A stretch of DNA of 64,000 nucleotides from Candidatus Magasanikiibacteriota bacterium. GTDB taxonomy: Bacteria; Patescibacteriota; Patescibacteriia; Magasanikbacterales; GWA2-37-8. The notes under the pieces are model-generated. The model ran no database searches, was not told the DNA's origin, and saw only the letters and a list, made by a program, of their open reading frames with translations. Position 1 is the stretch's first letter, and each line of letters opens with the position of its first letter. Location: NCBI GenBank assembly GCA_016182085.1, contig JACOYB010000006.1, forward strand, positions 2,015 through 66,014. Reading direction: 5' to 3'. The translations under genes and the position numbers were made by a program. Shown here in pieces: positions 562-62,494 of the stretch.

Positions 562-649
562 TTATTATAATTATACAGAGAAAAAACGCGCTTGTTTTGT
601 TAATACTAACCAAGCAAGCGCGATTTCTCTGGGTTAAAGGCCGTTAATT

Positions 650-786
650 GTCATTCTGATCAGAGCGAAGAATCCCTCTTCACTGTCATTCCCGCCCGAG
701 AGCGGGAATCCAGTCGACAATTGTCTGGATTCCCAATCAAGTTGGGAATGACAGACAAAAATCCTTCGTTACACTGAGGATGACAA
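650..786. repeat. Palindromic repeat cluster, GTCATTCCC..GGGAATCCAG family (copy R1, intergenic)
   Basis: Units gtcattcccgcccgagagcgggaatccag and ctggattcccaatcaagttgggaatgacag plus flanking degenerate units. Same family at 30908, 32971, 35011, 50144, 53502. Confidence 0.8.
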
Positions 787-30061: not shown

Positions 30062-31141
30062 ATGCAAATTACAGTTATAAAAAATCAAAACGAATGGAAT
30101 AGTTGGTTTTTACAAAAACCAGAGCCTCATAGCTTTGCCCAATCCTGGGCTTGGGGCGATATTTTAATTTCCGAAGGAAAAAAAGTGGAACGATTAGCGG
30201 TCATAGAAAATGAATTAGTTATAGCGCAAGCGCAGGTGGTGTATAGCCCTATTTTTTTCGGCTGGCAGTATGCCTTTTGTCCCAAAGGGCCGGTGGTTGA
30301 TTCACTCAGAAGTGAAGATGGTAAAATACAAATATATAAAATAATCAAAGAATACTTAAAAAATAAAAATTGTATATTTTTTAGAATTGAACCGGGAGTA
30401 TTGCCGGTTATGCCGCGTTCATTTTTTTTCAAAAAAACAATTGATATCAACCCATCAACCACGCTGCTGCTTAATTTAAACCAAACTGCCGCTCAGTTGC
30501 GCGGCAATATGCATCCTAAAACCAGGTATAATATTGCCCTAGCAGAAAAGAAAAATGTAAAGATTATCCAGGAAAAAAATTTGGAAGTATTTTGGATGCT
30601 GATGAATAAAACCGGAAACCGAGATAAATTCAGTTTGCATCATAAAAAACATTATGAAAAAATATTGGCAGCAGAAAGCGTTTTTCAGCTTACAGCGTAC
30701 TATAACTCGGTGCCGGTCGCGTGCGCCGTATTTATTGGTTTTGGAAATACCTTTACTTATCTATACGGCGCGTCAGATTATGAATATAGAAATTTGATGG
30801 CGCCGTATTTGCTCCAATGGGAAGGTATGGAACTGGGTAATGATTTTGGCAGTAAATGGTATGATTTTTTTGGAGTCGCGCCACGTTTACAGTCGGAGTC
30901 GTCAGCTGTCATTCCCGCCGCTAGCGGGAATCCAGACAATTTAGGTCAACACGGGATTCCCAATCAAGTTGGAAATGACAGCTATAACTATAGCTTCAAA
31001 CACCAGTATGCCGGCGTAACCCGCTTTAAATTGGGTTTTGGTGGCGTTCCCTATGAAGCCCCGGGCACGTTTGATCTGGTGGTTGATAAGAAAAAATATA
31101 AAATATATACTTTGCTTCGGTGGTTGCGGCGGTTATTTTAG
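30062..31141 (+). CDS. FemAB-family peptidoglycan interpeptide-bridge aminoacyltransferase-like protein (palindromic repeat inserted in-frame)
   Basis: SWAWGDIL and FemAB-like pattern. Residues SAVIPAASGNPDNLGQHGIPNQVGND are encoded by the repeat. Confidence 0.65.
   Translation: MQITVIKNQNEWNSWFLQKPEPHSFAQSWAWGDILISEGKKVERLAVIENELVIAQAQVVYSPIFFGWQYAFCPKGPVVDSLRSEDGKIQIYKIIKEYLKNKNCIFFRIEPGVLPVMPRSFFFKKTIDINPSTTLLLNLNQTAAQLRGNMHPKTRYNIALAEKKNVKIIQEKNLEVFWMLMNKTGNRDKFSLHHKKHYEKILAAESVFQLTAYYNSVPVACAVFIGFGNTFTYLYGASDYEYRNLMAPYLLQWEGMELGNDFGSKWYDFFGVAPRLQSESSAVIPAASGNPDNLGQHGIPNQVGNDSYNYSFKHQYAGVTRFKLGFGGVPYEAPGTFDLVVDKKKYKIYTLLRWLRRLF
30908..30981. repeat. Palindromic repeat R2 (GTCATTCCC family) inside the FemAB-like CDS, reading frame preserved
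   Basis: gtcattcccgccgctagcgggaatccag ... gggattcccaatcaagttggaaatgacag. Confidence 0.8.
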
Positions 31142-31317: not shown

Positions 31318-33669
31318 TTATTCTTCAGCTGGGTTTGCTTTAGTTGAAGCAGTCTCTTCATTTGTTTTTTTATAATCACATTCTTTACTGCTGCATTTGA
31401 TAACTCCTTTGGCGGCAAAAACCAGTGGCTGTTTGCAGGTCGGGCAGAATTCGCCAGTTGGTTTTTCCCACAACGCATATTCACAATCCGGATAGCGGTT
31501 GCAGCTATAGAATGGCTTGCCGCGCTTGCTGCGGCGCTGCACGATATCGCCCTCGCCACACTTAGGGCACTTCATGTTCATTTTAATTTCAATATTTTTA
31601 ATATTCTTGCATTTAGGATAGCCGGAACATCCTAAAAACGGCCCGAATCGTCCGCGGCGCAGGATCATTGGTTCGCCGCACTTTTCGCATTTTTCGTTTG
31701 CTTCCTCCACCGCTTCTTGCTGTTTGGCTTCCTCGGCGTTTAAAGATTTGGTTGTTTTACACTCCGGATATTTGGTGCAAGCCAAATATTTGCCAAATCG
31801 TCCGGTTTTAATAATCATATCCGAGCCGCACTTTTTACATTTTTCATCGGATTTTTCTTCGGTCAAAACTTTTTTATCTATTTCTTGTTCTTTTTTATCC
31901 AAGTTTTCTTTAAACGGTTTCCAAAAATCACCAATCACCGGCCGCCACTGCTTTTTACCGCGGGCGATTTCATCAAGATTATTTTCCATTTCCGCCGTAA
32001 ATTCATAATCTACGACATGGTGGAAATGTTCTACTAGTAAATCGTTAACAATATAGGCGATGTCTTTGGGGGCAAACCTTTTTTGTTCGTTGCGCTCAAT
32101 ATAGCCCCGATCCTCAATCGTAGAAATTGTGGGAGCATAGGTAGAAGGCCGGCCAATGCCATAATTTTCCATAGCTTTTACGAGTGTTGCGTCCGAGTAT
32201 CTGGCCGGAGGTTCGGTAAAATGCTGTTCCGGTTTAAGTTCGTTACAGGTAAGCGGTTCGTTATTCTTAAGCTGCGGCAAGAGATTTTCTTTGGCTCTAT
32301 CCGGGAACAGCTTTAAGAAACCATCAAAGACAATAGTTTGGCCATTGGCTCGGAATTTATAATCATTTTGGCTAGATATATCTATCGTAGTGGCATTTAG
32401 CTCGGCTGGGGCCATCTGGGTGGCAACAGCGCGTCTCCAGATAAGGTCATAAAGCCTGAATTGTTGTCTGTCTAGGTATTGTTCTATAGACTCGGGTGTG
32501 CGCATAGCTTCGGTAGGTCGTACGGCTTCGTGGGCTTCTTGAGCGTTTTTACTTTTATTATTATAAATTCTAGGAGAATCCAGCTGATATTTTTTGCCAA
32601 AATTATTACCGATAGTATCTTTGGCATCAGCCAAAAATTTTTCCGAAAGATTAACCGCGTCCGTACGCATGTAGGTAATCAGACCTACGGATCCTTCAGT
32701 TCCAAGTTCTATGCCCTCGTATAATTGCTGCGCCAAACGCATAGTCTGTTTGGCCGAAAAACCAAGATGACTGTTGGCTTCTTGTTGGAGGGTAGAAGTG
32801 GTAAATGGGGGAGAAGGCAAGCGTTTGGTTTTTTTCTCTTCCACGTTTTCTACTATATAAGTAGTTTTTTCTAAATCAGCCAAAATTTTGTCTATCTCCG
32901 CTTTAGTTTTTATATCTAGCTTATCTATTTTTTTGTCTTTGATCGCAATGAGCTTTGCGGTCAAGCAATTGTCATTCCCAACGAATTGGGAATCCAGTGT
33001 CCGGTTGTCTGGATTCCCGCTGGAGTTTATCCCGTGCTCCGACACGGGAGCGGGAATGACAAGCGACGAGTCGGAATGACAGAACAGCCCCTCGATACTC
33101 CAGTACTCTTCCGGGTTAAAAGCTTTTATTTCTCTTTCTCGTTCTACAATCAGGCGCACAGCCACCGATTGCACGCGTCCGGCCGACAAACCCTTGGCTA
33201 CTTTGCGCCACAAAAATGGAGATAGTTCATAACCCACTAATCTGTCCAAGATTCGGCGAGCTTGTTGCGCGTCTACCATTTTTAAATCTAGCGGGCGTGG
33301 ATTTTCTAGAGCATGCATTATGGCGGTTTTGGTAATTTCATGGAATACAATGCGTTTGGCGTCTTTTGGTTCAATTCCCAAAATATTGGCCAAGTGCCAA
33401 GAGATAGCTTCTCCTTCTCGGTCCTCATCGGTAGCAAATAGGATACCATCGCATTTTTTGGCCGCTTCTTTTAGTTCTTTGGCTACTTTGGTTTTGTCGC
33501 GGCTTACAATATAATGAGGTTCAAAATTATGTTCTACATCCACCCCCAGTTTGCTTTTTGGCAAATCACGGACATGGCCAAAAGAAGACTTCACAACAAA
33601 GTTTCTGCCCAAAAATTTGGAAATAGTTTTGGCTTTAGTAGGGGATTCTACGATGACTAAATTTTTCAT
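31318..33669 (-). CDS. topA: DNA topoisomerase I with C-terminal zinc ribbons (palindromic repeat inserted in-frame)
   Basis: Toprim VIVESPTKAKTI, active-site region, four C4 zinc ribbons. Repeat encodes SLVIPAPVSEHGINSSGNPDNRTLDSQFVGND. Confidence 0.9.
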   Translation of the reverse strand: MKNLVIVESPTKAKTISKFLGRNFVVKSSFGHVRDLPKSKLGVDVEHNFEPHYIVSRDKTKVAKELKEAAKKCDGILFATDEDREGEAISWHLANILGIEPKDAKRIVFHEITKTAIMHALENPRPLDLKMVDAQQARRILDRLVGYELSPFLWRKVAKGLSAGRVQSVAVRLIVEREREIKAFNPEEYWSIEGLFCHSDSSLVIPAPVSEHGINSSGNPDNRTLDSQFVGNDNCLTAKLIAIKDKKIDKLDIKTKAEIDKILADLEKTTYIVENVEEKKTKRLPSPPFTTSTLQQEANSHLGFSAKQTMRLAQQLYEGIELGTEGSVGLITYMRTDAVNLSEKFLADAKDTIGNNFGKKYQLDSPRIYNNKSKNAQEAHEAVRPTEAMRTPESIEQYLDRQQFRLYDLIWRRAVATQMAPAELNATTIDISSQNDYKFRANGQTIVFDGFLKLFPDRAKENLLPQLKNNEPLTCNELKPEQHFTEPPARYSDATLVKAMENYGIGRPSTYAPTISTIEDRGYIERNEQKRFAPKDIAYIVNDLLVEHFHHVVDYEFTAEMENNLDEIARGKKQWRPVIGDFWKPFKENLDKKEQEIDKKVLTEEKSDEKCKKCGSDMIIKTGRFGKYLACTKYPECKTTKSLNAEEAKQQEAVEEANEKCEKCGEPMILRRGRFGPFLGCSGYPKCKNIKNIEIKMNMKCPKCGEGDIVQRRSKRGKPFYSCNRYPDCEYALWEKPTGEFCPTCKQPLVFAAKGVIKCSSKECDYKKTNEETASTKANPAEE
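32971..33082. repeat. Palindromic repeat R3 inside topA, frame preserved
   Basis: gtcattcccaacgaattgggaatccag ... ctggattcccgctgg...gggagcgggaatgacaag ... tcggaatgacag. Confidence 0.8.
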
Positions 33670-33725
33670 AATCGAAATGAGTGAGTAAATATATAAGCTT
33701 GCTTATTTATTTACGAGCGAATGAG
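33670..33725 (-). promoter_or_regulatory. Bipartite conserved upstream motif (box A and box B) abutting the topA start
   Basis: Minus-strand read ...CTCATTCGCTCGTAAAT...TTACTCACTCATTTCGATT-ATG. Extra degenerate boxes further upstream. Confidence 0.6.
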
Positions 33726-33889
33726 TTTATTTACAAGCGAAGTGAGTGAAAAGGACATTTATGTGCTTTTCCGAACAAGCGCAGTAAATATGGAAACCTA
33801 TATATGAGCTTTGCCCTATTTTATTGAAAAATAGAAGTTACAAGAATTAAAGATAATATAAATTATACCATTTGTCAACCGGGGCCATA

Positions 33890-35010: not shown

Positions 35011-35217
35011 TGTCATCCCGCCTGCCCGCCCTGTCGTTGGCGGGAGTGAGGCCTTAGCCGACGAGGGATCTAGGGTTGTCATTCCCGCCACAGCGGGAAT
35101 CCAGTATCCAATCAAATCGACTGGATCCCCGCTGTGGCGAGGATGACAACTGTGCAGACAGAGATTCCCTACCTACCGCAGGTAGGCTCACCCCTGCGAA
35201 GGGATTCGGAATGACAG
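35011..35217. repeat. Composite four-module palindromic repeat R4 (intergenic dprA-pth)
   Basis: Four modules: gtcatcccgc..gagggatctag, gtcattcccgccacagcgggaatccag, ctggatccccgctgtggcgaggatgacaa, cagacagagattccc..gggattcggaatgacag. Same architecture as R6. Confidence 0.8.
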
Positions 35218-48054: not shown

Positions 48055-50619
48055 TTAGTTGTCGTTTTTTTTCATGACCAAACTCCAGATTTTGTCGGAA
48101 CCAAGCTCTGTTAGTTTTATTGACATGCCATTAGCTGCAGCCGAAAGTCCGAGGCCGTCGTGCCAAATTGGCAGCCAGCCATCCGGGAAAATTACCTGGC
48201 TTTCAAAGTTGCTGTTAATGCCGGATTGTTTTTGCGCCACAAGTTGATAATTGGAAATTGGTTCCTGAGATTGAAAAATTTTTGCCCAATTATTTAAGTT
48301 TGAATCACCTTGTTTTTCCCAGGCTTTAAATGGTAATTTGTAGATAAATTGAACTTCTGTCGTTTGGCCTGGTTCGGTAATGATCCAGTTGCCAAAAGCT
48401 GTTTTGCCAAATTCTTTGGTAATGCGGGTACCTGATAAACTATCGGTTGATTCTTCTTTTTCCAGGGCAGCTAAGGTTTGGTCTTTTTCATACCAGCTTT
48501 CCGGAGCTCTAAATATTCTTTCTTCTGGCCAGGTAAAGCCGCTGGCGCGCACGAGCTCACTGCCTTCGGGTACATAGATTCGCAGGTAATCAATATTGGT
48601 TTGTCCATATAATTTTTCTTGACTGTTTCCGGTATGCTCTCGGGTTATAACGACGCTGTTTACAATCGTGCCGTCTGGCTGGATAACCGCCTGGTGGCTG
48701 ATGTTTTGTTTTATTTTTGCGTCACTTTTCTGTCCTTGAATATTGGTATTTACTACAAGCAGGTAATCTTGATTTGGATTTGTTTGTATGATTTCGCCGC
48801 TCCAGCCAAATTCGCGAATCGTTTTTTGAGTATTTTCATCGGTAAAGTATGTTTGAATTTCTTTTTGCTGCAAGCCTTCTTCCAAGTTGGTAAGCATTGG
48901 CAAAACTGCTTTTGGTGTTATGTTTTTGAAATTTTCAATAAAAACCGGCGCCAAATCCGATAGAATTTGTTTAGGTTTATTATCCTTTTTTTCTGGGCCA
49001 TACTCTACGATATCTTGAATGGTGGCGAGTGCATTTGTTTTGTCTAAAACCAGTCCGCGATTCTCGTCGGCTACCGGACCCATTATGGAAAGTAGGCGAT
49101 TCAAAACACTGGCATTTATAGCGATTACCCCGTCAGCCGTAACTCCGCGGCTATGGCGGTAGAACCAAAGTGCTTTTTCGGCACTGGCCGGAAAGTCAGG
49201 GAACCAGTTGGCATCCTGGAACTCCCAGCGTTTATTGGATAATAGTAGCGGCGTAGGCGGGACAATATACTCGGTAAGCTGTCCTTGCAGGTCATAGGAT
49301 CCGCCGGCGGGAATGTCTATATGTATTATTTCACCATCCTTAATGTCTAACATGGCAAAACTGCCCATAAAACCGCCGGTAGGACGGAGCTCAGCCGGAT
49401 TTTGGAAAATAAGCAAGTATCTTCGCAGACCCTTGCCGCCAAAAATTTCCTGTACGGCGTTATTTAACTGAGCGATGGTTTCCAGATCTTTGACGTAGAC
49501 ATTAAATAAAACACGGAATTCTTTAAATGTGTCTTGGTATTCAAACGGCAACACATCTGAATCAACGTTATTTAATTCACGCACGGCTGTTTGATAATGG
49601 GGCAGGGAAAATTTTAGATGATCTCCCACAAGCGCCAGATTTTTGGTGATGGTGGAGTTGGATTGTTGAATTTCAGACAAACCTTTGAGCAAGTAGGTGT
49701 TGCCTAAGGAAATTTCTTGTCCGGCGACGATAAGCCGCTGGCGGCTTTGGACCTCGTTGTTCACGATAGGTACGGCTGAAATGATTTTTTGTAAAAAGCT
49801 ATATTTACTGTCCAAGATATTTACAGCCTGTTCAAAATTTTGCAGCGCGTCAGTGAGTGATAGCTGGGCATCGGTTAGGTTGCCGCTCATAAGCGCGGAA
49901 GTAGAATCGTGCAGCGCGGTAAAACCGGCGGTGCTGCTATCCGCGATTTTGTTGGTTGTGGATTTGAGGTCAAAGTAATAGGTGCGCGCGCCAGACGGTA
50001 CGAATATTAAAAAGAGTATGGCGAGTGTCGCGCCTACAAAATGCTTGGGAGCGGCTGTAGCGCGAATTTTATGTATGGCAGATTTAGCTTTTTGCGCGTG
50101 TGAAAATTTTAGATCAGAAAGTTTTTGGGATAATTTTTTAATTGTCATCCCGAACTTGTTTCGGGATCTAGATGCTGAAACAAGTTCAGCATGACGCTGT
50201 GTATTTTTTTGTTGAGTTGGTTCTTTTTGGGCTTCCATTATTTTTGGCAAGAAAGACGGCGCTGCCACCGGCTTAGCAGCCGATTGCGCAGCGGTATGCC
50301 GCTCATGAAAAAAATAAAAATCATTATTTTCTTCCGGAGCCACGGCTTGGATATGTTCCAGTAATTTATTCTTTTCTTTTTTAAGATTTACCAGGTGCGG
50401 GGATTCATGATTTTGATATTGAACATGGTGTACAAAAAATTTGAGCGGCGCGCGTTCCGTTTGACCAGTGTTTGTTTGCGATACCATGTTTGGGCTCACT
50501 TGTTTGTCCAGGTTGAAACTTAAAGCATCTGGGCAAGTGGATTTGTTGTGCCCTACTTTTTGGCAGAAACCGCAATGTCGGAGCTGGAGTTTTTTAGCCG
50601 GTTTTAGTTTTTTGGCCAT
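48055..50619 (-). CDS. Hypothetical large membrane-anchored protein with N-terminal zinc-knuckle (palindromic repeat inserted in-frame)
   Basis: CGFCQKVGHNKSTC, one TM helix, ~650-aa extracytoplasmic domain. Repeat R5 encodes HAELVSASRSRNKFGMT. Confidence 0.5.
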   Translation of the reverse strand: MAKKLKPAKKLQLRHCGFCQKVGHNKSTCPDALSFNLDKQVSPNMVSQTNTGQTERAPLKFFVHHVQYQNHESPHLVNLKKEKNKLLEHIQAVAPEENNDFYFFHERHTAAQSAAKPVAAPSFLPKIMEAQKEPTQQKNTQRHAELVSASRSRNKFGMTIKKLSQKLSDLKFSHAQKAKSAIHKIRATAAPKHFVGATLAILFLIFVPSGARTYYFDLKSTTNKIADSSTAGFTALHDSTSALMSGNLTDAQLSLTDALQNFEQAVNILDSKYSFLQKIISAVPIVNNEVQSRQRLIVAGQEISLGNTYLLKGLSEIQQSNSTITKNLALVGDHLKFSLPHYQTAVRELNNVDSDVLPFEYQDTFKEFRVLFNVYVKDLETIAQLNNAVQEIFGGKGLRRYLLIFQNPAELRPTGGFMGSFAMLDIKDGEIIHIDIPAGGSYDLQGQLTEYIVPPTPLLLSNKRWEFQDANWFPDFPASAEKALWFYRHSRGVTADGVIAINASVLNRLLSIMGPVADENRGLVLDKTNALATIQDIVEYGPEKKDNKPKQILSDLAPVFIENFKNITPKAVLPMLTNLEEGLQQKEIQTYFTDENTQKTIREFGWSGEIIQTNPNQDYLLVVNTNIQGQKSDAKIKQNISHQAVIQPDGTIVNSVVITREHTGNSQEKLYGQTNIDYLRIYVPEGSELVRASGFTWPEERIFRAPESWYEKDQTLAALEKEESTDSLSGTRITKEFGKTAFGNWIITEPGQTTEVQFIYKLPFKAWEKQGDSNLNNWAKIFQSQEPISNYQLVAQKQSGINSNFESQVIFPDGWLPIWHDGLGLSAAANGMSIKLTELGSDKIWSLVMKKNDN
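50144..50197. repeat. Palindromic repeat R5 (two hairpin units, 54 nt = 18 codons) inside CDS 48055..50619
   Basis: gtcatcccgaacttgtttcgggatctag + atgctgaaacaagttcagcatgac. Confidence 0.7.
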
Positions 50620-50781
50620 TACAAAAAAATATGTGGAATTACTTCCATATTATACACTATTTTTGAGGTTTTGAGGACTGTGAATAAAGGTGTTTGATTT
50701 TGACAAAATGGAAGCTGTAAAGGTAGTATACTTTTAGTTGTTTGGCGTGCTCTTTGAACAAGAATCAACAGGGGGGAACCT

Positions 50782-51177
50782 ATGCTGTACGTCCTTTTGA
50801 CACTGGCAAGCGTCGGATACCTGAACGTTGGCCTTCACTTGACTAGCAAGAAAAAGGCCGCAGAGGCCTTGGCTTCTAAGGATAGAAATAAAAAAGAGTG
50901 GCATAAGTTCAATCGAGATTGGCTATTCTCTATGCTATGGCTGCCGCCTTGGCGTTTGGTTCAAGAGGTGGTTAAGGCTGGGATTTTCCCGGCGCTTCTT
51001 AGCCATAGGAAGCGTGTTAGGGAATTGGCGGCCAAATTCGCAAACGAGCCTGATGATCCGAAGCTTCTGGCCGAGGCCGAACGGGAAGCGGATCGGGCCG
51101 CGCGGGGGGTTGCTGAACCCGAACCAGACAATGCCTTGAATCAGGTGTTGAACCCACAAGACCTGCCAGACGAATGA
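50782..51177 (+). CDS. Hypothetical protein (GC-rich patch)
   Basis: 131 aa with N-terminal hydrophobic segment. Confidence 0.4.
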   Translation: MLYVLLTLASVGYLNVGLHLTSKKKAAEALASKDRNKKEWHKFNRDWLFSMLWLPPWRLVQEVVKAGIFPALLSHRKRVRELAAKFANEPDDPKLLAEAEREADRAARGVAEPEPDNALNQVLNPQDLPDE

Positions 51178-51208
51178 GGGTCTTTAGTTTGAAGGCACGG
51201 CCGTTTAA

Positions 51209-52303
51209 TCAAGGCAGATTAGCGGCTTTTTTCATTTCTGCTATAAAAGTTTTTTCAGTAAATTTTTGAGCAGTTTTTTGGCAAAATTCTTCCATTTGCA
51301 CGGCTTTTTCCAAAGTCATATTTTTTACGGCTTCGCGCAAATTATTTGTGTTAAAATTAGGCGGCAGTAAAATGCCATTTTTTCCGTCTTCAATTATTTC
51401 TAAGAGTCCTCCCTCGGCCACGCCGATGACCGGTTTGCCGGCTTGCATGGATTCTACGGCGCTCATGCCAAAATCTTCACGGATGGGTATGTATATGGTG
51501 GCTAAACATTTTCCCAAATATTCCAAAAGCTGCTCATCGCTCACCCAGCCGAGAATAGTGATATTATTATGGCCCTTGGCCAGATTTTTAATTTTTTCCA
51601 GTTCGGGCCCGCCCGAAGCCACCACTAATTTTTTATCCGGCATGCCCACGAAAGCTTCTACGATTTTGTCTACTCGTTTTACATCATAAAGACGAGCCCA
51701 AGAGAAAAAGTACTCACCGTAGCCCAGATTTTTAAATGGTAGGGTATCGCAAGGGGGGTAGACCACGACAGACTCCAGTCCTAAATATTTTTTAATTCGC
51801 TCTTGAGTATTTTTGGAGTTGGTAATAATCAGGTCCAAACGTCGGGAGAGAGTTTCAAATCGCCAGCGATTAAGCCGGACAAAAGGAATGAAGATGATTT
51901 TTTTCCAAAGCGGGTATTGTGTTAAACGATTTTGGTAAGTGTCGTATAGATGTCTGGGAGGAGTGTGCATGTAGGCAATGTTTCGTTTGCTGCGTAGCCG
52001 CGTAAGCGCGATAAGACAATCACCGCTGTAGATTATAATGTCGTATTTTTTGGCAAAACCAGTTTTGAACAAAAAGGAAAATTGTACTTGCAGATAACGA
52101 AATCCCGGCAGGTTTGACCAAGCTTTTTCTTTATATAATTCTATAGTATGTATGCCTTCCGCACGCGGATCAAAAGCATCTTTGCCAATAAAAGCTGTGG
52201 CTATATCGGCATGCAGGTTTTTGGCCAGGCTGATGACAAGTCGTTCGCCGCCGCCTTTGTACAAAAAGTAATCGTGCAGGATAAGAATTTTAGGATTGGC
52301 CAT
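51209..52303 (-). CDS. GT4-family glycosyltransferase
   Basis: N-terminal GGGERLV and C-terminal EDFGMSAVESMQAGKPVIG (E-X7-E). Confidence 0.8.
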   Translation of the reverse strand: MANPKILILHDYFLYKGGGERLVISLAKNLHADIATAFIGKDAFDPRAEGIHTIELYKEKAWSNLPGFRYLQVQFSFLFKTGFAKKYDIIIYSGDCLIALTRLRSKRNIAYMHTPPRHLYDTYQNRLTQYPLWKKIIFIPFVRLNRWRFETLSRRLDLIITNSKNTQERIKKYLGLESVVVYPPCDTLPFKNLGYGEYFFSWARLYDVKRVDKIVEAFVGMPDKKLVVASGGPELEKIKNLAKGHNNITILGWVSDEQLLEYLGKCLATIYIPIREDFGMSAVESMQAGKPVIGVAEGGLLEIIEDGKNGILLPPNFNTNNLREAVKNMTLEKAVQMEEFCQKTAQKFTEKTFIAEMKKAANLP

Positions 52304-52455
52304 AAATGAATAGGGTGCGACTTCAGCCTGTATATTGGCATTGGCTAAAGATCGGGAATATGTTATGATTTCCCCAAGGAGAATAATAGGCTAATTGTAG
52401 CATATTATTTAATATTTACCAGGTATTTTTCTATAGGGGCTAAAGCCCATATATG

Positions 52456-52545
52456 CTCATTCGCTCGGAAATATCCAGTATAAATATTTTAGCTCGCAAG
52501 CGATCAAAAATATTTTCCTGTCTATTTCACTCACTCATTTCGTAT
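52456..52545 (+). promoter_or_regulatory. Bipartite conserved upstream motif (box A, box B) abutting the start of ORF 52546
   Basis: tatatgCTCATTCGCTCGGAAAT ... CACTCACTCATTTCGTAT-ATG. Confidence 0.6.
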
Positions 52546-52956
52546 ATGAAAGAATCATTTTTCAAACATATTCCAAAACCGGAATCAGGCGCTGAAGAAC
52601 CGCACAAACAACCCAAAGTTGTAGACATTCCAGCCGGCGGCAAAGAGAAAAAAATAGATGCAGACCCGATTGCCCGATACACTAAAACTTACCACAAAAT
52701 CATGCTTGATTTCGGTCATCAAATTATAAACTCAAAAGAGAAAAGCCTGGCTATACCAAATAGTTTAGAACTCATGATAAAAAATTGCGACACCGATCAG
52801 CTGGTTGGTGAGATTGAGAATACAAAAAAGGAAGACTGGAAACGCAGGGAAGTGTTGTTTAAAGCAATTACCGATGAAATTTATCTGCGGTTATGGGAAG
52901 CAAGGAAAGGTTCAAAAAGAAAAACTAAATCCGCCGATATTATAAAAGTTCAATAA
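52546..52956 (+). CDS. Hypothetical protein
   Basis: Start set at MKESFF, where the conserved box B ends. The ORF-track start at 52453 would put the motif inside coding sequence. Confidence 0.45.
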   Translation: MKESFFKHIPKPESGAEEPHKQPKVVDIPAGGKEKKIDADPIARYTKTYHKIMLDFGHQIINSKEKSLAIPNSLELMIKNCDTDQLVGEIENTKKEDWKRREVLFKAITDEIYLRLWEARKGSKRKTKSADIIKVQ

Positions 52957-54235
52957 ACTCTTTGGCAGATTCTGTCCAGCTAAATTTTTTAGCTTGCTCT
53001 GGGCCTAATTTTTTAAAATCTTCTCTCAAGGATTCATTTTTTAGTATATCCGCCATTGCTTTTGCTAGTTCTGAAGGGCGGTTGGGGTTTACCAAATAGG
53101 CGGCATTTTCGGTGATTTCCGGCAAGGATGAGCGGTGGGAGGTAATAACCGGTACGCCACAGGCCATCGCTTCGGCTACAGGAAAACCAAAACCTTCATA
53201 AAAACTTGGGTAGACAAATAAGTCCGCTAATGAATACAAAATGTGTTTATCTATTTCTGCTACCGAACCGATAAATATTATTTTATCTCTGGCTGGTGAT
53301 TTTTGCGCGGCGCTAAAAATGGCTTCGTCATTCCAGCCTTTATGGCCGGCAATTATTAGGGAGTAGGTGGTAGGCAGTAGGGAGTAGCATTGTTCAAAAG
53401 CACTTATTAGGCCAATAATATTTTTGCGCGGTTCTATAGTGCCTAGGAAAAGAATAAACTTACCTGGAAGGTTGTATTTTTTTTGTACCATTTCTTTGTT
53501 TGTCATCTCGAGCGATCCCGACTGCTCGGGAGACGAGGGATCTTTATCCGTTGTCATTCCCGCCGCAAGCGGGAATCCAGTATCCGATTGTCTGGATTCC
53601 CGCTGTGGCGGGAATGACAAGTGACCGGACAGAGATTCCTCGCCGATGCGAACCGGGTTCGGAATGACAGTTGATTGATTGTTTGAGCAGGTAACCCCAG
53701 GATAAATCACTTTAATTTTTTCCGATGGAATTTTGTACAAGTCAATGATATCTCGTTTGGTATTTTCCGACGGCGTAATGATAATCTCAGCCTGCTGGCA
53801 TTGTTTTTTTGGGTTAACCGCCCAGTGCCATAAGCGTTGTTTGGGAGAAAAAAATTGCGGAAAAAATTCAAAAGACAGATCGTGGACAGTAAGTATCTGT
53901 TTTGGTTTTTTGGTTAGGGCGGTAAAGCCAAAATTTGGTGAAAAGAAATAGTCCAGTTTAATTTTTTTGTCTATTTTTGGCGCGTTTAGAAGTTTTGTAG
54001 ATGCGTTAAATAATTTGTTGGGCCAGCGCGTGGCAACATAGCCTATATTAGGCTGTTTCCACTCAGGAATATTTTTGGAAATATCCGTATATGAATTATA
54101 AAAAAGAAAATATTGATTTTGTTTATCAATTTCAAAAATAGCATTCAGAAGTTCGTGTGTATATTCGCCTATGCCAGCCCGAACGGGAGACATGAGAGAG
54201 CGGATATCTATGCCAATTTGCAACATACTACCCAA
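52940..54235 (-). CDS. GT4-family glycosyltransferase (composite palindromic repeat inserted in-frame)
   Basis: C-terminal EGFGFPVAEAMACGVPVI. Residues LSGHLSFPPQRESRQSDTGFPLAAGMTTDKDPSSPEQSGSLEMTNKE come from repeat R6. Confidence 0.75.
   Translation of the reverse strand: MGSMLQIGIDIRSLMSPVRAGIGEYTHELLNAIFEIDKQNQYFLFYNSYTDISKNIPEWKQPNIGYVATRWPNKLFNASTKLLNAPKIDKKIKLDYFFSPNFGFTALTKKPKQILTVHDLSFEFFPQFFSPKQRLWHWAVNPKKQCQQAEIIITPSENTKRDIIDLYKIPSEKIKVIYPGVTCSNNQSTVIPNPVRIGEESLSGHLSFPPQRESRQSDTGFPLAAGMTTDKDPSSPEQSGSLEMTNKEMVQKKYNLPGKFILFLGTIEPRKNIIGLISAFEQCYSLLPTTYSLIIAGHKGWNDEAIFSAAQKSPARDKIIFIGSVAEIDKHILYSLADLFVYPSFYEGFGFPVAEAMACGVPVITSHRSSLPEITENAAYLVNPNRPSELAKAMADILKNESLREDFKKLGPEQAKKFSWTESAKEFIELL
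53502..53670. repeat. Composite four-module palindromic repeat R6 inside GT4 CDS, frame preserved
   Basis: Modules parallel R4: gtcatctcgagcgatcccgactgctcgggagacgagggatct, gtcattcccgccgcaagcgggaatccag, ctggattcccgctgtggcgggaatgacaag, cagagattcc..ggaatgacag. Confidence 0.8.
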
Positions 54236-57396: not shown

Positions 57397-58998
57397 TTAT
57401 AATGGAAGTTGGCTTGAACCTTCCGTAGGTTGTTCGGTCGGGGCCGGTTGTTTTGGCTGAATAAATTTATCAAATCCTTGCGGCAATTCCACTCGTCTGA
57501 ATTGTTGTGGGCCTTGTTCCCAAGGCAGCTCGTCTTCTTTCCCGGTTAGATCCTCAATTTTGCTTTCAAACTCTTGTTTTATATTTTCTAAGTCATCCAA
57601 AGCATCGCTAACCATGTCGGTGTCTACGGGCTTGGTTTTTAAGAGGTTGAGAACTTCTACGCCCTTTTCGTTCGCTTGGGCAAGAATAGATTCTAGTTCG
57701 CTAGTATCTACTTTTTTTCTCTTTAAGTTTTTAATAGTGAGATTGGCTTGAGCCATGCCTCGCTTGAATTCGGAATTAAAGCGGCCTAAATTGCTCATTG
57801 TCATTATGACTCTTTGATATTGCCAAACATCATCCATTTGGCCAAAGAAATCATCTTCCAAAGCAGAAAATGCTTCTTCCGAGTTGCCAGCCTTCATTTT
57901 AGCTACAGCATCATCACGAACACTTTTTAGTTTGTTTACAGCTTCTTCAAAAGCTGTGTATTCGCTCTGAACATCTATGCCTTTTTTAGCCAGAGTGGCT
58001 ACAGTTAATTTTGCTCGTTTTAAAGCGGCGGATAGTTGAGCTAATTGACGATCAATTTGTTTTAAGGTTTGTGGCCAGCGAGCCAAAACCTCCAATTGTT
58101 GGCGGTCTTCGTCAAATGTCTCCATCATATCTCGCATTGATTCCATTTCTTCCTGCACATCTTCAAAAGATGTTGCGTTTTTGACCTTATCAACCACAGA
58201 ACGAAGTTTGGCTACATGTTCGGTAATATCAGTAGGCACGGTTATGCCTTTTTTAGACAGAACGGCTAGCTGTCTCTCAAACATTTTGAGCCCTGTTTCC
58301 ATGCCTTTCATGCCGCGTTTCATGCCTTCTATTTGTTGCGCCTTTTCAAAAATTTCTCTTCTGGCATCTTCTAGATAGCGCATTAAAACTTGCACCTCGC
58401 TTATATCAACGTCTTCCAAGCCTTCAGCGCTCGTGGCATTTTGGATTTTATCAAGCAGAGTCTTTAGGTCGCTTAATTTTTGTTTTACTTCTTCAGGAAC
58501 AGCCGTGCCTTTTTTTTCGGCGCTGGCGATCATTAGTTCAAATTGCTTGACTTGGCGGGCCATTTGTTTCATCCCTCTTTTTATTTGCTCCAATTGTCTG
58601 CCATCATTTTGTCCGCCCATCATGCCTTGATTCTGGCTAGGGTCATAATTTGGCGGCATTTGGCCTGGGTACTGTTTATATTGATCGCCAGATGGGGGCA
58701 TCATGCCTTGAGGCGGCATTGGGTATTGCCCTTGGTTTGGATCTTGGGGGTACATTGTTCCCTGGGGAGGCATTGGATATGTCTGATCGGAGCCGCTTGG
58801 TGGAGGGGGCGGCATAGGAGAGGTAGGAGCCGGGGCAATGGTTGTATTGTCTTCGGCGTATACTTGGGTTGATCGTACGGCCTTAAACAGTACCTTAAGG
58901 CTTTGTGGTAATTCTAAATAAAAAGCGTGTGCTGGTTTTGCCATTAATGTGAACGCAAAAATAGCAAAAATTGATATTATTTTTGCAAAATGTTTCAT
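57397..58998 (-). CDS. Hypothetical secreted Pro/Gln-rich coiled-coil protein
   Basis: Signal peptide MKHFAKIISIFAIFAFTLMAKPAHA, PPxG low complexity, then long heptad region. Confidence 0.5.
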   Translation of the reverse strand: MKHFAKIISIFAIFAFTLMAKPAHAFYLELPQSLKVLFKAVRSTQVYAEDNTTIAPAPTSPMPPPPPSGSDQTYPMPPQGTMYPQDPNQGQYPMPPQGMMPPSGDQYKQYPGQMPPNYDPSQNQGMMGGQNDGRQLEQIKRGMKQMARQVKQFELMIASAEKKGTAVPEEVKQKLSDLKTLLDKIQNATSAEGLEDVDISEVQVLMRYLEDARREIFEKAQQIEGMKRGMKGMETGLKMFERQLAVLSKKGITVPTDITEHVAKLRSVVDKVKNATSFEDVQEEMESMRDMMETFDEDRQQLEVLARWPQTLKQIDRQLAQLSAALKRAKLTVATLAKKGIDVQSEYTAFEEAVNKLKSVRDDAVAKMKAGNSEEAFSALEDDFFGQMDDVWQYQRVIMTMSNLGRFNSEFKRGMAQANLTIKNLKRKKVDTSELESILAQANEKGVEVLNLLKTKPVDTDMVSDALDDLENIKQEFESKIEDLTGKEDELPWEQGPQQFRRVELPQGFDKFIQPKQPAPTEQPTEGSSQLPL

Positions 58999-59091
58999 AT
59001 ACGAAATGAGTGAGAGAGCTAAATTAAATGTGCTTAATTTAGTTCCGAACGAATGAGTATATACCTTAGTATATTCGAAATGAGTGAGAGA
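58999..59091 (-). promoter_or_regulatory. Conserved upstream motif cluster (box B, box A, box B) abutting the start of ORF 57397..58998
   Basis: Minus-strand read CTCTCACTCATTTCGAATATAC...TATATACTCATTCGTTCGGAA...CTCTCACTCATTTCGTAT-ATG. Confidence 0.6.
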
Positions 59092-59279
59092 AAGAATTAA
59101 ATGTTTTAATTCTTTCCCAGTGTTTGAGCATATACCTGAAGTATATGCGTTTTAAAAAAGAAGCTGATTAGATATATAGCCGCAGAAGCGGCAACGACCT
59201 TTTAGGAGATTTATTTTACGATAAAAGTATTATACCATAAATTTTGAAAAAAATCAAGGTCTATTCTAGCTAAAGTTTG

Positions 59280-62314: not shown

Positions 62315-62494
62315 TGGACGAGGAGGGGCTTGGCTTCGACTAAAATTTTCTTCCGAAAATTTTGTCTAGCCACCCGTCCGAACGGATTCATCCGGGCGGG
62401 CCGCCTCACGGCCGCGCTCGCCCGCCTGCGTCGCGCGACATCGTTCCGGCGTTCTCGTCCCTCGCCGCAACACAAACTATTGTGTTGCTCTTAG
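62315..62494 (-). other. Conserved GC-rich tRNA-Leu-associated element (copy 2) ending in a direct repeat of the tRNA-Leu(CAG) 3' end
   Basis: Reverse complement ~85% identical to 8331-8514. Terminal cccctcctcgtcca repeats the tRNA 3' end. Confidence 0.75.

Follow-up and report, generated by a model that had tools for sequence, protein, structure and literature searches.

The window analysed here, 64,000 nucleotides (nt) of contig JACOYB010000006.1, is an ordinary chromosomal stretch of Candidatus Magasanikbacteria, a lineage of the candidate phyla radiation (CPR; Patescibacteria), and it carries six loci of palindromic hairpin repeats, two of them between genes and four in frame within genes. 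Locus 1 (649–785) lies between the first two of six type IV secretion system (T4SS)-pilin paralogues, and locus 4 (35011–35216) between pth and dprA, both of which are on the minus strand. Locus 2 (30907–30980) is located in a FemAB-family gene, locus 3 (32970–33081) in topA, locus 5 (50143–50196) in the linker of a DUF4012 protein and locus 6 (53501–53669) in a GT4-family glycosyltransferase gene. An earlier reading of the window (the original prediction) had described a family of non-coding, probably non-autonomous mobile palindromes in six copies, reminiscent of Neisseria dRS3. All six loci are where it placed them, with limits shifted by about one base, as the elements start with TGTCAT, one base earlier than noted, and end with ATGACA. 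The repeated copies, however, are modules and number 19 rather than six (four each in loci 1, 4 and 6, three in locus 3 and two each in loci 2 and 5), which together span 752 nt or 1.2% of the window.

The repeats stand far above chance. A search of both strands of the window with the proposed pattern, written as GTCATYCC-N4-34-GGRATSYAG, returned 8 matches where 100 dinucleotide-preserving shuffles gave an expectation of 0.00, and the 8-mer head GTCATYCC alone returned 15 matches against 2.05 expected. The strict dRS3 pattern ATTCCC-N8-GGGAAT is matched exactly three times (0 expected); modules with 5–6-nt loops have N9–N10 spacing instead of the N8 of strict dRS3. Searching the window by nhmmer with the filters off (--max) and a profile built from 13 modules revealed nothing convincing outside the six loci, and the list of loci is therefore complete for the window. 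Assembly artefact, one of the ways in which the prediction could have failed, is excluded at locus 5, because window positions 50140–52485, locus 5 included, recur with 100% identity in a Logan assembly made independently (L220, run SRR12113430); that contig ends 3 nt from the locus.

Each module is approximately 28–30 nt long and consists of an unpaired (T/C)GTC tag, an 8-bp stem that starts with A–T and T–A pairs, a 4–6-nt loop and an unpaired C(C/T)AG tail. The start reads TGTCAT in 18 of the 19 modules and CGTCAT in one. Most stems are ATTCCCGC/GCGGGAAT, and the others are ATTCCCAA/TTGGGAAT, ATCCCGAA/TTCGGGAT, ATGCTGAA/TTCAGCAT and similar. The basic element is a pair of inverted modules with the TGTCAT tags pointing outward and the tails facing each other across a spacer of 0–17 nt, and inverted pairs are present in all six loci. 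Heterodimers of one CCCGC and one CCCAA stem were found in loci 1, 2 and 3, and homodimers of two CCCGC stems in loci 4 and 6. The four-module composites consist of one dimer nested within the spacer of another.

Thus in locus 1 an outer pair (649–678, plus strand, and 758–785, minus strand; TGTCATTCTGAnCAGAG... and ...CTsAGGATGACA) encloses a heterodimer made of a CCCGC-stem module (684–713, plus) and a CCCAA-stem module (725–753, minus). Locus 4 has a homodimer (35077–35104, plus; 35121–35148, minus) between outer modules at 35011–35073 (plus) and 35159–35216 (minus), and locus 6 has one (53552–53580, plus; 53592–53619, minus) between outer modules at 53501–53544 (plus) and 53630–53669 (minus). 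Locus 2 is a single heterodimer (30907–30935, plus; 30952–30980, minus), the two modules of locus 5 (50143–50171, plus; 50168–50196, minus) share a central CTAG, and locus 3 combines modules at 32970–32997 (plus) and 33009–33061 (minus) with a partial one at 33062–33081 (minus). The middle module of locus 3 is a long-loop variant with an inner hairpin: where the topA module of a relative (L125) has CGCAA in the loop, that of the window has an extra small hairpin, TCCCGTGTCGGAGCACGGGATAAACTCCA, and a very similar long loop was found in a module adjoining an ssn nuclease gene (see below) in another contig (L150). The outer modules of loci 4 and 6 are also long-loop or nested variants.

The composites fold far better than mononucleotide shuffles, in line with the folding check that the original prediction had suggested; z-scores range from −5.3 to −10.5 for DNA and RNA on both strands, with weaker values of −2.0 to −3.4 for the short locus 2. 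For an analysis of covariation we collected 28-mers from all the gathered sequence by their flank anchors alone (YGTCA...TCYAG). Among the 119 unique 28-mers obtained, 98 have at least seven of the eight stem pairs, and 29 different stem sequences are represented. When the 28-mers were aligned in a fixed register, 89% of the stem cells were paired, compared with 75% after shuffling, and sliding the partner columns by 1–3 positions reduced pairing to 19–49%. Changes on both sides of a pair were seen in 97 cells, against 19.4 in the shuffled sets, and none of 500 shuffles reached 97. The 28-mers come from many genomes, and the changes are therefore non-independent events, but the direction of the result is unambiguous: the hairpin is under constraint, and its stems keep pairing through compensatory change.

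In-frame inserts in four host genes

Four of the six loci lie in frame within real genes, those for FemAB, TopA, the DUF4012 protein and the GT4 glycosyltransferase. The original prediction missed this: its statement that the elements have no coding capacity holds insofar as they encode no protein of their own, but these four are read as parts of host proteins. In every intragenic copy the stop-free frame is the frame in use, and the intergenic loci 1 and 4 have stops in all six frames. When 14 related loci are counted along with the window, long open reading frames (ORFs) contain 8 of the 21 element loci. The insertion sites are variable loops or linkers, at which the inserts add low-confidence, probably disordered, segments of about 18–57 residues; the two that were modelled have very low predicted confidence (pLDDT <50) and no secondary structure. 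Nor do the inserts belong to a conserved domain shared by all homologues, as orthologues without them are found.

The FemAB-family peptidoglycan bridge-forming enzyme (30062–31141, plus strand; Pfam PF02388, E=1.4e-41) is 359 amino acids (aa) long, against 337 aa in its closest orthologues. Locus 2 encodes ...AVIPAASGNPDNLGQHGIPNQVGND... within it, an insert of about 23 residues (VIPAASGNPDNLGQHGIPNQVGND) that is absent from the nearest orthologue, in L124, and from that of L001, with flanks that are nearly identical. In a further relative, L126, the same FemAB loop contains an outer pair of the locus 1 type on its own, with an unbroken 14-nt spacer.

DNA topoisomerase I (topA, 31318–33669, minus strand; Pfam Toprim, Topoisom_bac and Zn_ribbon_Top1) has 783 aa instead of the 751 aa of close orthologues that lack the insert, and locus 3 encodes CHSDSSLVIPAPVSEHGINSSGNPDNRTLDSQFVGNDN within it. 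Four of the five closest orthologues (P0002–P0005; 751 aa, 86–93% identity in the alignment) are without the insert, P0007 from L125 (81% identity) carries the same element minus the 24-nt loop hairpin, and P0008, P0011, P0012 and P0013 carry other module combinations in the same loop, with TGTCAT...ATGACA bounds that are read as CHS...DDNC. In the nearest relative (P0001, from L124) a palindromic insert of another kind, 63 nt long, lies a few codons from the site, which means that palindromes of at least two kinds have entered the loop. In an AlphaFold2 (AF2) model of TopA, which is weak overall (mean pLDDT 66.8, predicted template modelling score (pTM) 0.40), the insert residues 201–232 have pLDDT 26–32 and lie between strands 188–197 and 235–243.

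Two side observations concern the same gene. The insert in the L124 topA (GCA_964619625.1, about 10590–10655) is itself in frame and contains the hairpins GCCGATTTTGC/GCAAAATCG and ATTCCGC/GCGGAAT, without TGTCAT ends. The window topA is a mosaic, in which the first ~500 nt share ~80–94% identity with L001 and L124 alike, L001 being slightly the closer, and the sequence from about nt 895 onwards is mostly 90–98% identical to L124 and ~74–88% identical to L001; this pattern of identity indicates recombination between related lineages. Gene conversion of the topA insert from an L125-like donor was considered and is not supported, as a search for recombination tracts revealed no L125-like flank beyond the element.

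The GT4-family glycosyltransferase (52940–54235, minus strand; Pfam Glyco_transf_4 at residues 77–183 and Glycos_transf_1 at 251–411) has 431 aa, compared with about 370–390 aa in its homologues. Its two Rossmann halves are separated by approximately 52 additional residues, which are absent from all 13 aligned homologues; alignment with MshA from the PDB likewise leaves ~51 residues in surplus. All 150 GT4 representatives listed match the protein in more than one stretch, the best stretch mostly covering query residues ~6–185 or ~245–430. An AlphaFold/AF2 model (mean pLDDT 83, pTM 0.80) shows both Rossmann halves with confidence, and residues 185–241 are the sole segment with pLDDT <50 and without secondary structure. 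Three GT4 homologues (P0243, P0288 and P0304) have other long inserts in a different loop (alignment columns 101–185), whose peptides look repeat-derived (...SIARDPSTP...ARDDVSR, ...SLDFARDRLAGG...), which suggests that palindrome-derived inserts are common in these glycosyltransferases.

Locus 5 encodes ...HAELVSASRSRNKFGMT... in the 854-aa DUF4012 protein (48055–50619, minus strand; Pfam PF13196), which has an N-terminal zinc-knuckle-like segment. The long ORF is real, because two homologues span the insertion point: P0404 is without the element and P0405 has a shorter remnant, ...SLGMTTKK, and the homologues show the zinc-knuckle-like segment to be contiguous with the remainder of the DUF4012 protein. 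No relevant literature was found for the peptides that the elements encode (IPAFAGMT, SFPRRRES and others).

Family membership and the ssn nuclease gene

Repeats of this build have been described before. The superfamily of CGTC-tagged repetitive extragenic palindromes (REPs) defined by Di Nocera, De Gregorio and Rocco (BMC Genomics 2013; PMC3733652) is characterized by an unpaired terminal CGTC tag, with TGTC or CCTC accepted as variants, an 8–9-bp stem starting A–T, T–A, a 4–5-nt loop and an unpaired 3-nt ~CCA tail. Its units occur mostly as inverted homodimers or heterodimers, some of them are intragenic and no transposase is associated with them; CGTC-1 was equated with Neisseria dRS3, and two further families with the Rickettsia palindromic elements (RPEs) RPE-6 and RPE-4 (PMC3733652). 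More recently dRS3 was extended to the 28-nt NTS, CGTCATTCCCGCGMAVGCGGGAATCYRG, and a degenerate Ssn-related motif (SRM) was defined; repeats of this kind lie on either side of the small GIY-YIG gene ssnA across phyla (Nat Commun 2025; PMC11893778). Neisseria SsnA binds the folded motif in single-stranded DNA alone and on one strand alone, and its cut falls ~3 nt to the 5′ side; cleavage depends critically on the three bases that precede the palindrome, and binding on the C that directly follows it (PMC11893778). An ssn homologue was reported in 81% of genomes with >200 SRMs, in a RefSeq-based survey that makes no mention of Patescibacteria or Candidatus (PMC11893778).

The six loci are members of this known superfamily of hairpin repeats, which comprises the CGTC-tagged REPs, Neisseria dRS3/NTS and SRM, here in a CPR chromosome, and we hold this assignment and the anatomy given above with high confidence. 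The link to dRS3 that the original prediction had drawn turned out to be right and closer than it had noted: besides the three strict dRS3 matches, modules 35077–35104 and 53592–53619 are identical to the NTS consensus at 25 of 28 positions, with two of the three mismatches in the loop. The published SRM pattern HGTCWYN(0-2)YYVSBRHN(0-5)WNVSBRGN(0-2)RNCYNB matches 30907–30935, 35121–35148 and 53552–53580, against 0.09 matches expected, and has one further, probably chance, match in the window. All modules of the B/C type read GTC-ATTCCC...GGGAAT-C, and so keep the GTC 5′ and the C 3′ of the palindrome.

With the CGTC-REPs (CGTC-1 and CGTC-2) the window repeats share the tag, the 8-bp AT-start stem, the CCA-type tail, the typical loop, the inverted dimers, the intragenic units and the absence of an adjacent transposase, but the long-loop and nested variants exceed the 4–5-nt loop. 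With Neisseria NTS/dRS3/SRM they share a near-identical module and mosaic clusters, and the same modules flank metagenomic ssn genes as NTS does in NTS–ssn–NTS. Unlike the Neisseria repeats, they reside in a CPR host, carry a TGTC tag in place of CGTC, in many copies form inverted dimers that have a 0–17-nt spacer and no ssn, and lie in frame within genes at four of the six loci. A role in transformation has been shown for Neisseria. In behaviour, as the original prediction had proposed, they resemble RPEs, which are palindromes in frame in housekeeping genes at permissive sites that add a peptide and vary in presence between relatives; the link in sequence is the published equation of RPE-4 and RPE-6 with CGTC repeats (PMC3733652). 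RPEs (Ogata et al. 2000, cited in PMC3733652) differ in host phylum and are usually described as single 100–150-bp units, whereas the window elements are modular nested dimers. A full-text search revealed, among the best 10 of its 630 matches, no paper that joins 'Rickettsia palindromic element' with CPR, Patescibacteria or Parcubacteria. The original prediction was thus correct about dRS3 and RPE-like behaviour and missed the intragenic location and the Ssn partner enzyme.

The exact module pattern was found in at least 120 stretches of IMG/VR viral contigs, and four Ssn-like ORFs adjoin modules among these matches. Using an alignment of the four ORFs, we gathered 80 metagenomic loci that were selected solely for an Ssn homologue. 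The strict pattern of the original prediction is present in 50 of the 80 and the SRM in 58, and GTCAT is preceded by T in 47 cases and by C in 48. Within 150 nt of ssn, 33 upstream modules lie in the orientation of the gene and 34 downstream modules in the opposite one. Eighteen loci contain 22 module–ssn–module units of 354–485 bp, some of which overlap and share the same ssn gene; the smallest unit per locus is mostly 354–395 bp. These units carry the 95-aa GIY-YIG nuclease alone and have the architecture of the window dimers, with a 290-nt gene replacing the short spacer.

The resemblance extends to the modules themselves. In L198, L217 and L219 a left module, TGTCATTCCCGCGAAAGC(G/T)GGAATCCAG, is followed by ssn and by a right module, CTGGATTCCCAATCAAGTTGGGAATGACA, so that a CCCGC stem on the left is combined with a CCCAA stem on the right, the same pairing as in the window heterodimers. 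Window positions 725–753 recur unchanged as the right module in the L198 and L219 units, whereas in L217 the ssn-adjacent module differs from this sequence by one base and an identical copy lies ~240 nt further downstream. All three contigs have a GC fraction of 0.29–0.31 and a gene context unlike that of CPR. Ssn-type GIY-YIG proteins of 95 aa that are 75–96% identical to one another (P0121–P0240) come from metagenome-assembled genomes named from at least five phyla, as Thermotogae, Deltaproteobacteria, Gemmatimonadota, Kiritimatiellae and Zixibacteria, very many of them on contigs of <3 kb; a spread across phyla on short contigs fits a horizontally moving, multicopy unit that breaks assemblies. 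NCBIfam has no model for the Ssn seed. Because the Ssn-selected loci place ssn between modules in the same outward arrangement, the window dimers look like nuclease-less miniature derivatives of module–ssn–module units, a relationship that we infer from the sequences. By analogy, the dimer may stand to the ssn unit as a miniature inverted-repeat transposable element (MITE) stands to an insertion sequence (IS), or a REPIN to a REPtron.

Turnover, origin and rival explanations

Comparison of orthologous loci, which the original prediction had called for, revealed that occupancy at the same sites differs between close relatives. The closest relative, L124 (GCA_964619625.1), is ~88% identical in DNA over 20 kb (locally 78–97%) and none of the three sites that it shares with the window is occupied alike: the FemAB site is empty, the insert in topA is another one, and unrelated sequence fills the pth–dprA spacer. 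At the pth–dprA site there is an empty 5-nt spacer in L125, two modules in L001 and four in the window. Within the window, modules 53592–53619 and 35077–35104, which belong to loci 6 and 4, are 100% identical over 29 nt.

We propose that the dimers derive from compact 355–395-bp units of module, ssn and inverted module by loss of the gene. Hairpins would form where replication, transformation or repair leaves DNA single-stranded, an Ssn that resides in the genome, or once did, would act on them in trans, and copies would be gained, lost and nested through nuclease-triggered repair or recombination; the larger composites would arise where a dimer enters the spacer of another dimer or a small hairpin enters a loop. 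Selection would remove copies that break genes, and survivors would therefore keep the frame, be free of stops and lie in tolerant surface loops or linkers. That intragenic copies are in frame, stop-free and at tolerant sites is shown as a pattern by the four genes above. An Ssn-dependent origin and spread in this lineage we hold tentatively, as a possibility nearly in balance and leaning slightly to the doubtful side, whereas the explanation as a whole, family membership together with Ssn-dependent origin and spread, is in our judgement likely, a compromise grading. The description of the repeats as non-autonomous mobile palindromes is plausible and gains support from the differing occupancy and the end architecture shared with the module–ssn–module units.

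Several observations weigh against this proposal. Neither an ssn nor another GIY-YIG gene was found in the 64-kb window by regular expression, phmmer and profile searches, and phmmer and hmmsearch found no ssn in ~72 kb from four relatives (L001 and L124–L126, all partial genomes) or in ~75 kb of sequence in which ten CPR-like fragments carry these dimers too (L127–L136). Pfam scans of the 48 window ORFs revealed no transposase, integrase or GIY-YIG nuclease. The named Ssn homologues and clusters that were retrieved all come from other phyla and none from CPR, and the SRM pattern misses the CCCAA-stem and long-loop modules. The topA element is shared with an orthologue that is only 81% identical and is absent from closer ones, and its copies (83–87% identity) have diverged to a similar degree as the genes (~80%), a pattern that fits ancient insertion with repeated loss as well as recent mobility. 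No target-site duplication was found at the six junctions or in comparisons of filled and empty sites; because the sites are hypervariable loops, neither a duplication nor a precise empty/filled junction can be defined there. Finally, a GIY-YIG nuclease alone is incapable of strand transfer, and the copying step is without explanation, in the literature as well.

Some of these points would be expected if the repeats were fossils that entered Magasanikbacteria long ago and ceased to move, their present differences being due to deletion, hairpin slippage, and recombination or gene conversion, with no enzyme needed now. In accordance with such a history, no nuclease or transposase was found in ~210 kb of the lineage, the topA copies shared with the 81%-identity orthologue have diverged about like the genes, the window topA is itself a recombination mosaic, and Di Nocera et al. 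proposed that CGTC repeats are perhaps heading for extinction (PMC3733652). Yet the perfect identity of two modules in different loci, the differences from the ~88%-identity relative at all three comparable sites, the repeated insertions implied by the nested architectures and the compensatory change that keeps stems paired are all at odds with it, and we regard it as unlikely. The repeats might instead persist through use by mobile elements, as attachment or target sites of a site-specific recombinase. Neisseria dRS3 is the target of a phage recombinase, being the integration site of Nf filamentous phages with an IS110-type recombinase (PMC11893778), and the module pattern recurs in the IMG/VR viral contigs. 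However, no recombinase, prophage or IS adjoins the six loci, and recombination at the repeats would account for their use and not for their multiplication; improbable as an explanation of its own, it is compatible with Ssn-dependent spread. Nor is it probable, and we give it very little credence, that the loci are functional RNA or regulatory structures (terminators, attenuators or mRNA stabilizers) or a peptide motif selected for protein function. The predicted folds are strong and the two intergenic loci lie within probable operons, but the Rfam matches in the window at the gathering threshold are rRNA, tRNA and a group I intron only, with none at the six loci. For the two intergenic loci, promoter and terminator scans gave nothing above chance, and neither terminator-like T-tracts nor an excess of promoters was seen there. 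The repeats are found either way round and in proteins that are unrelated to one another, the nearest orthologues are without inserts, and the inserts are modelled at very low confidence and without secondary structure.

REP doublets that form hairpins were reportedly described by Bertels and Rainey in 2011 as REPIN–RAYT systems, which are also discussed in PMC3733652. In these, as in the window and the ssn units, a non-autonomous inverted palindrome doublet is related to a gene that is present in a single copy and has the same palindromes on both sides, two inverted palindromes form a long hairpin, and mosaics and occasional intragenic copies occur, so that movement by a RAYT, an IS200-like Y1 transposase, deserves consideration. 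The window tag, however, is TGTC/CGTC, with GTAG/GTGG absent, Pfam scans revealed no Y1_Tnp gene in the window, and no RAYT flanked by CGTC repeats was found by Di Nocera et al. (PMC3733652). The gene between such modules encodes a GIY-YIG nuclease rather than an HUH Y1 transposase, and a REPIN origin is extremely improbable. Classical MITEs, deletion derivatives of an IS with a DDE transposase that move by cut-and-paste with target-site duplication, are a highly improbable source as well. Like bacterial MITEs such as the Correia elements of Neisseria and QMITE1/2 of Coxiella (PMC5896051), which can overlap or extend ORFs, the window elements are small, lack an ORF of their own, have a terminal inverted structure (TGTCAT...ATGACA) and vary in presence between relatives. 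Unlike them, they show no target-site duplication at any of the six loci, and neither a DDE-transposase parent nor an IS with the same ends (TGTCATTCCC... termini) was found; longer units with the same ends carry the 95-aa GIY-YIG nuclease alone. Coxiella QMITEs in particular were rejected as relatives, as QMITE2 carries a GTAG REP and is not of the window family (PMC5896051).

A bolder form of the Ssn-dependent proposal, that the dimers in CPR are actively spreading, nuclease-dependent mobile DNA, ssn-less miniatures of a ~360-bp phylum-crossing unit that remodels the CPR proteome through repeated hits on the same surface loops of TopA, FemAB and glycosyltransferases, we consider unlikely. 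A further possibility is that the hairpin dimers are copied by a mechanism new for a GIY-YIG nuclease, or without Ssn at all.

No new kind of system is revealed here; the family is known, and a CPR host is added to it. The additions are that four genes, topA among them, are occupied in frame, that dimers are nested within dimers and that, at the level of sequence, ssn-less dimers match both ends of ssn units from another lineage. With this assignment a CPR genome enters a family of repeats whose partner, the single-strand nuclease Ssn, became known as recently as 2025, and which joins Neisseria dRS3 with some protein-coding Rickettsia palindromes. It shows that selfish DNA can sit in protein genes, that of the essential topoisomerase I included, in an ultra-small genome other than Rickettsia. 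The match to the ssn units lends sequence-level support to the view that the common inverted dimers are nuclease-less derivatives of module–ssn–module units, as MITEs are of IS. In practice, such repeats end or break metagenome contigs, as in L220, and in the annotation of CPR genomes they make proteins longer and give rise to spurious ORFs or 'domains'.

Further features of the window and related contigs

The best homologues of the window TopA are named Candidatus Magasanikbacteria, the GC content of the window is 40–45%, and the genes recognized by the Pfam scans are housekeeping genes (PNPase, S15, GlmS, RNase III, EngA, ThrRS and MiaA) and a glycosyltransferase cluster. Six T4SS-pilin (PF18895) paralogues form a series between 178 and 4671, with a glycosyltransferase gene and two tRNA genes among them. 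A scan of species-representative genomes with the narrow pattern GGGAATCCAGACAAY-N4-9-CTGGATTCCC returned 10 stretches. The same dimers are present in L127–L130 and L132–L136 (CAYIHE01, CAZBWU01, CAYIJG01 and CAZXML01), whose records are titled 'uncultured Gammaproteobacteria bacterium'; one of these, L129, contains an array of at least nine T4SS-pilin paralogues that are up to 61% identical to those of the window, and at least this record looks like a mislabelled CPR genome.

As is usual for CPR, the 23S rRNA gene holds a group I intron (12119–12317; Rfam RF00028, 69.9 bits). Two 56-nt copies that are 88% identical follow at 12820–12875 and 12939–12994, 119 nt apart from start to start, and the 5S rRNA gene overlaps the first of them with its 3′ end. 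Both tRNA-Leu genes are immediately followed by a 172-nt element (8334–8505, plus strand, and 62322–62493, minus strand), the two copies of which are 90% identical and strongly structured (RNA fold z = −5.3). After each copy comes a second copy of the last 16–17 nt of its own tRNA (for example, GAGTCTCTCCCGCGGC). The element has no Rfam match at E<=1, and a 90% identical copy is present in L001 (18284–18412); it has the look of a miniature integrative element that carries att-like repeats, or of an unusual intervening sequence. Finally, the boxes CTCACTCATTTCG, CTCATTCGCTCGGAAAT and TATAGGGGCTAAAGCCC recur just upstream of several genes, topA included (8558–8627, 33659–33760, 52426–52560 and 58988–59102), and also fill the pth–dprA spacer of L124; a promoter or leader common to these genes is a possible explanation, as is a further family of repeats.

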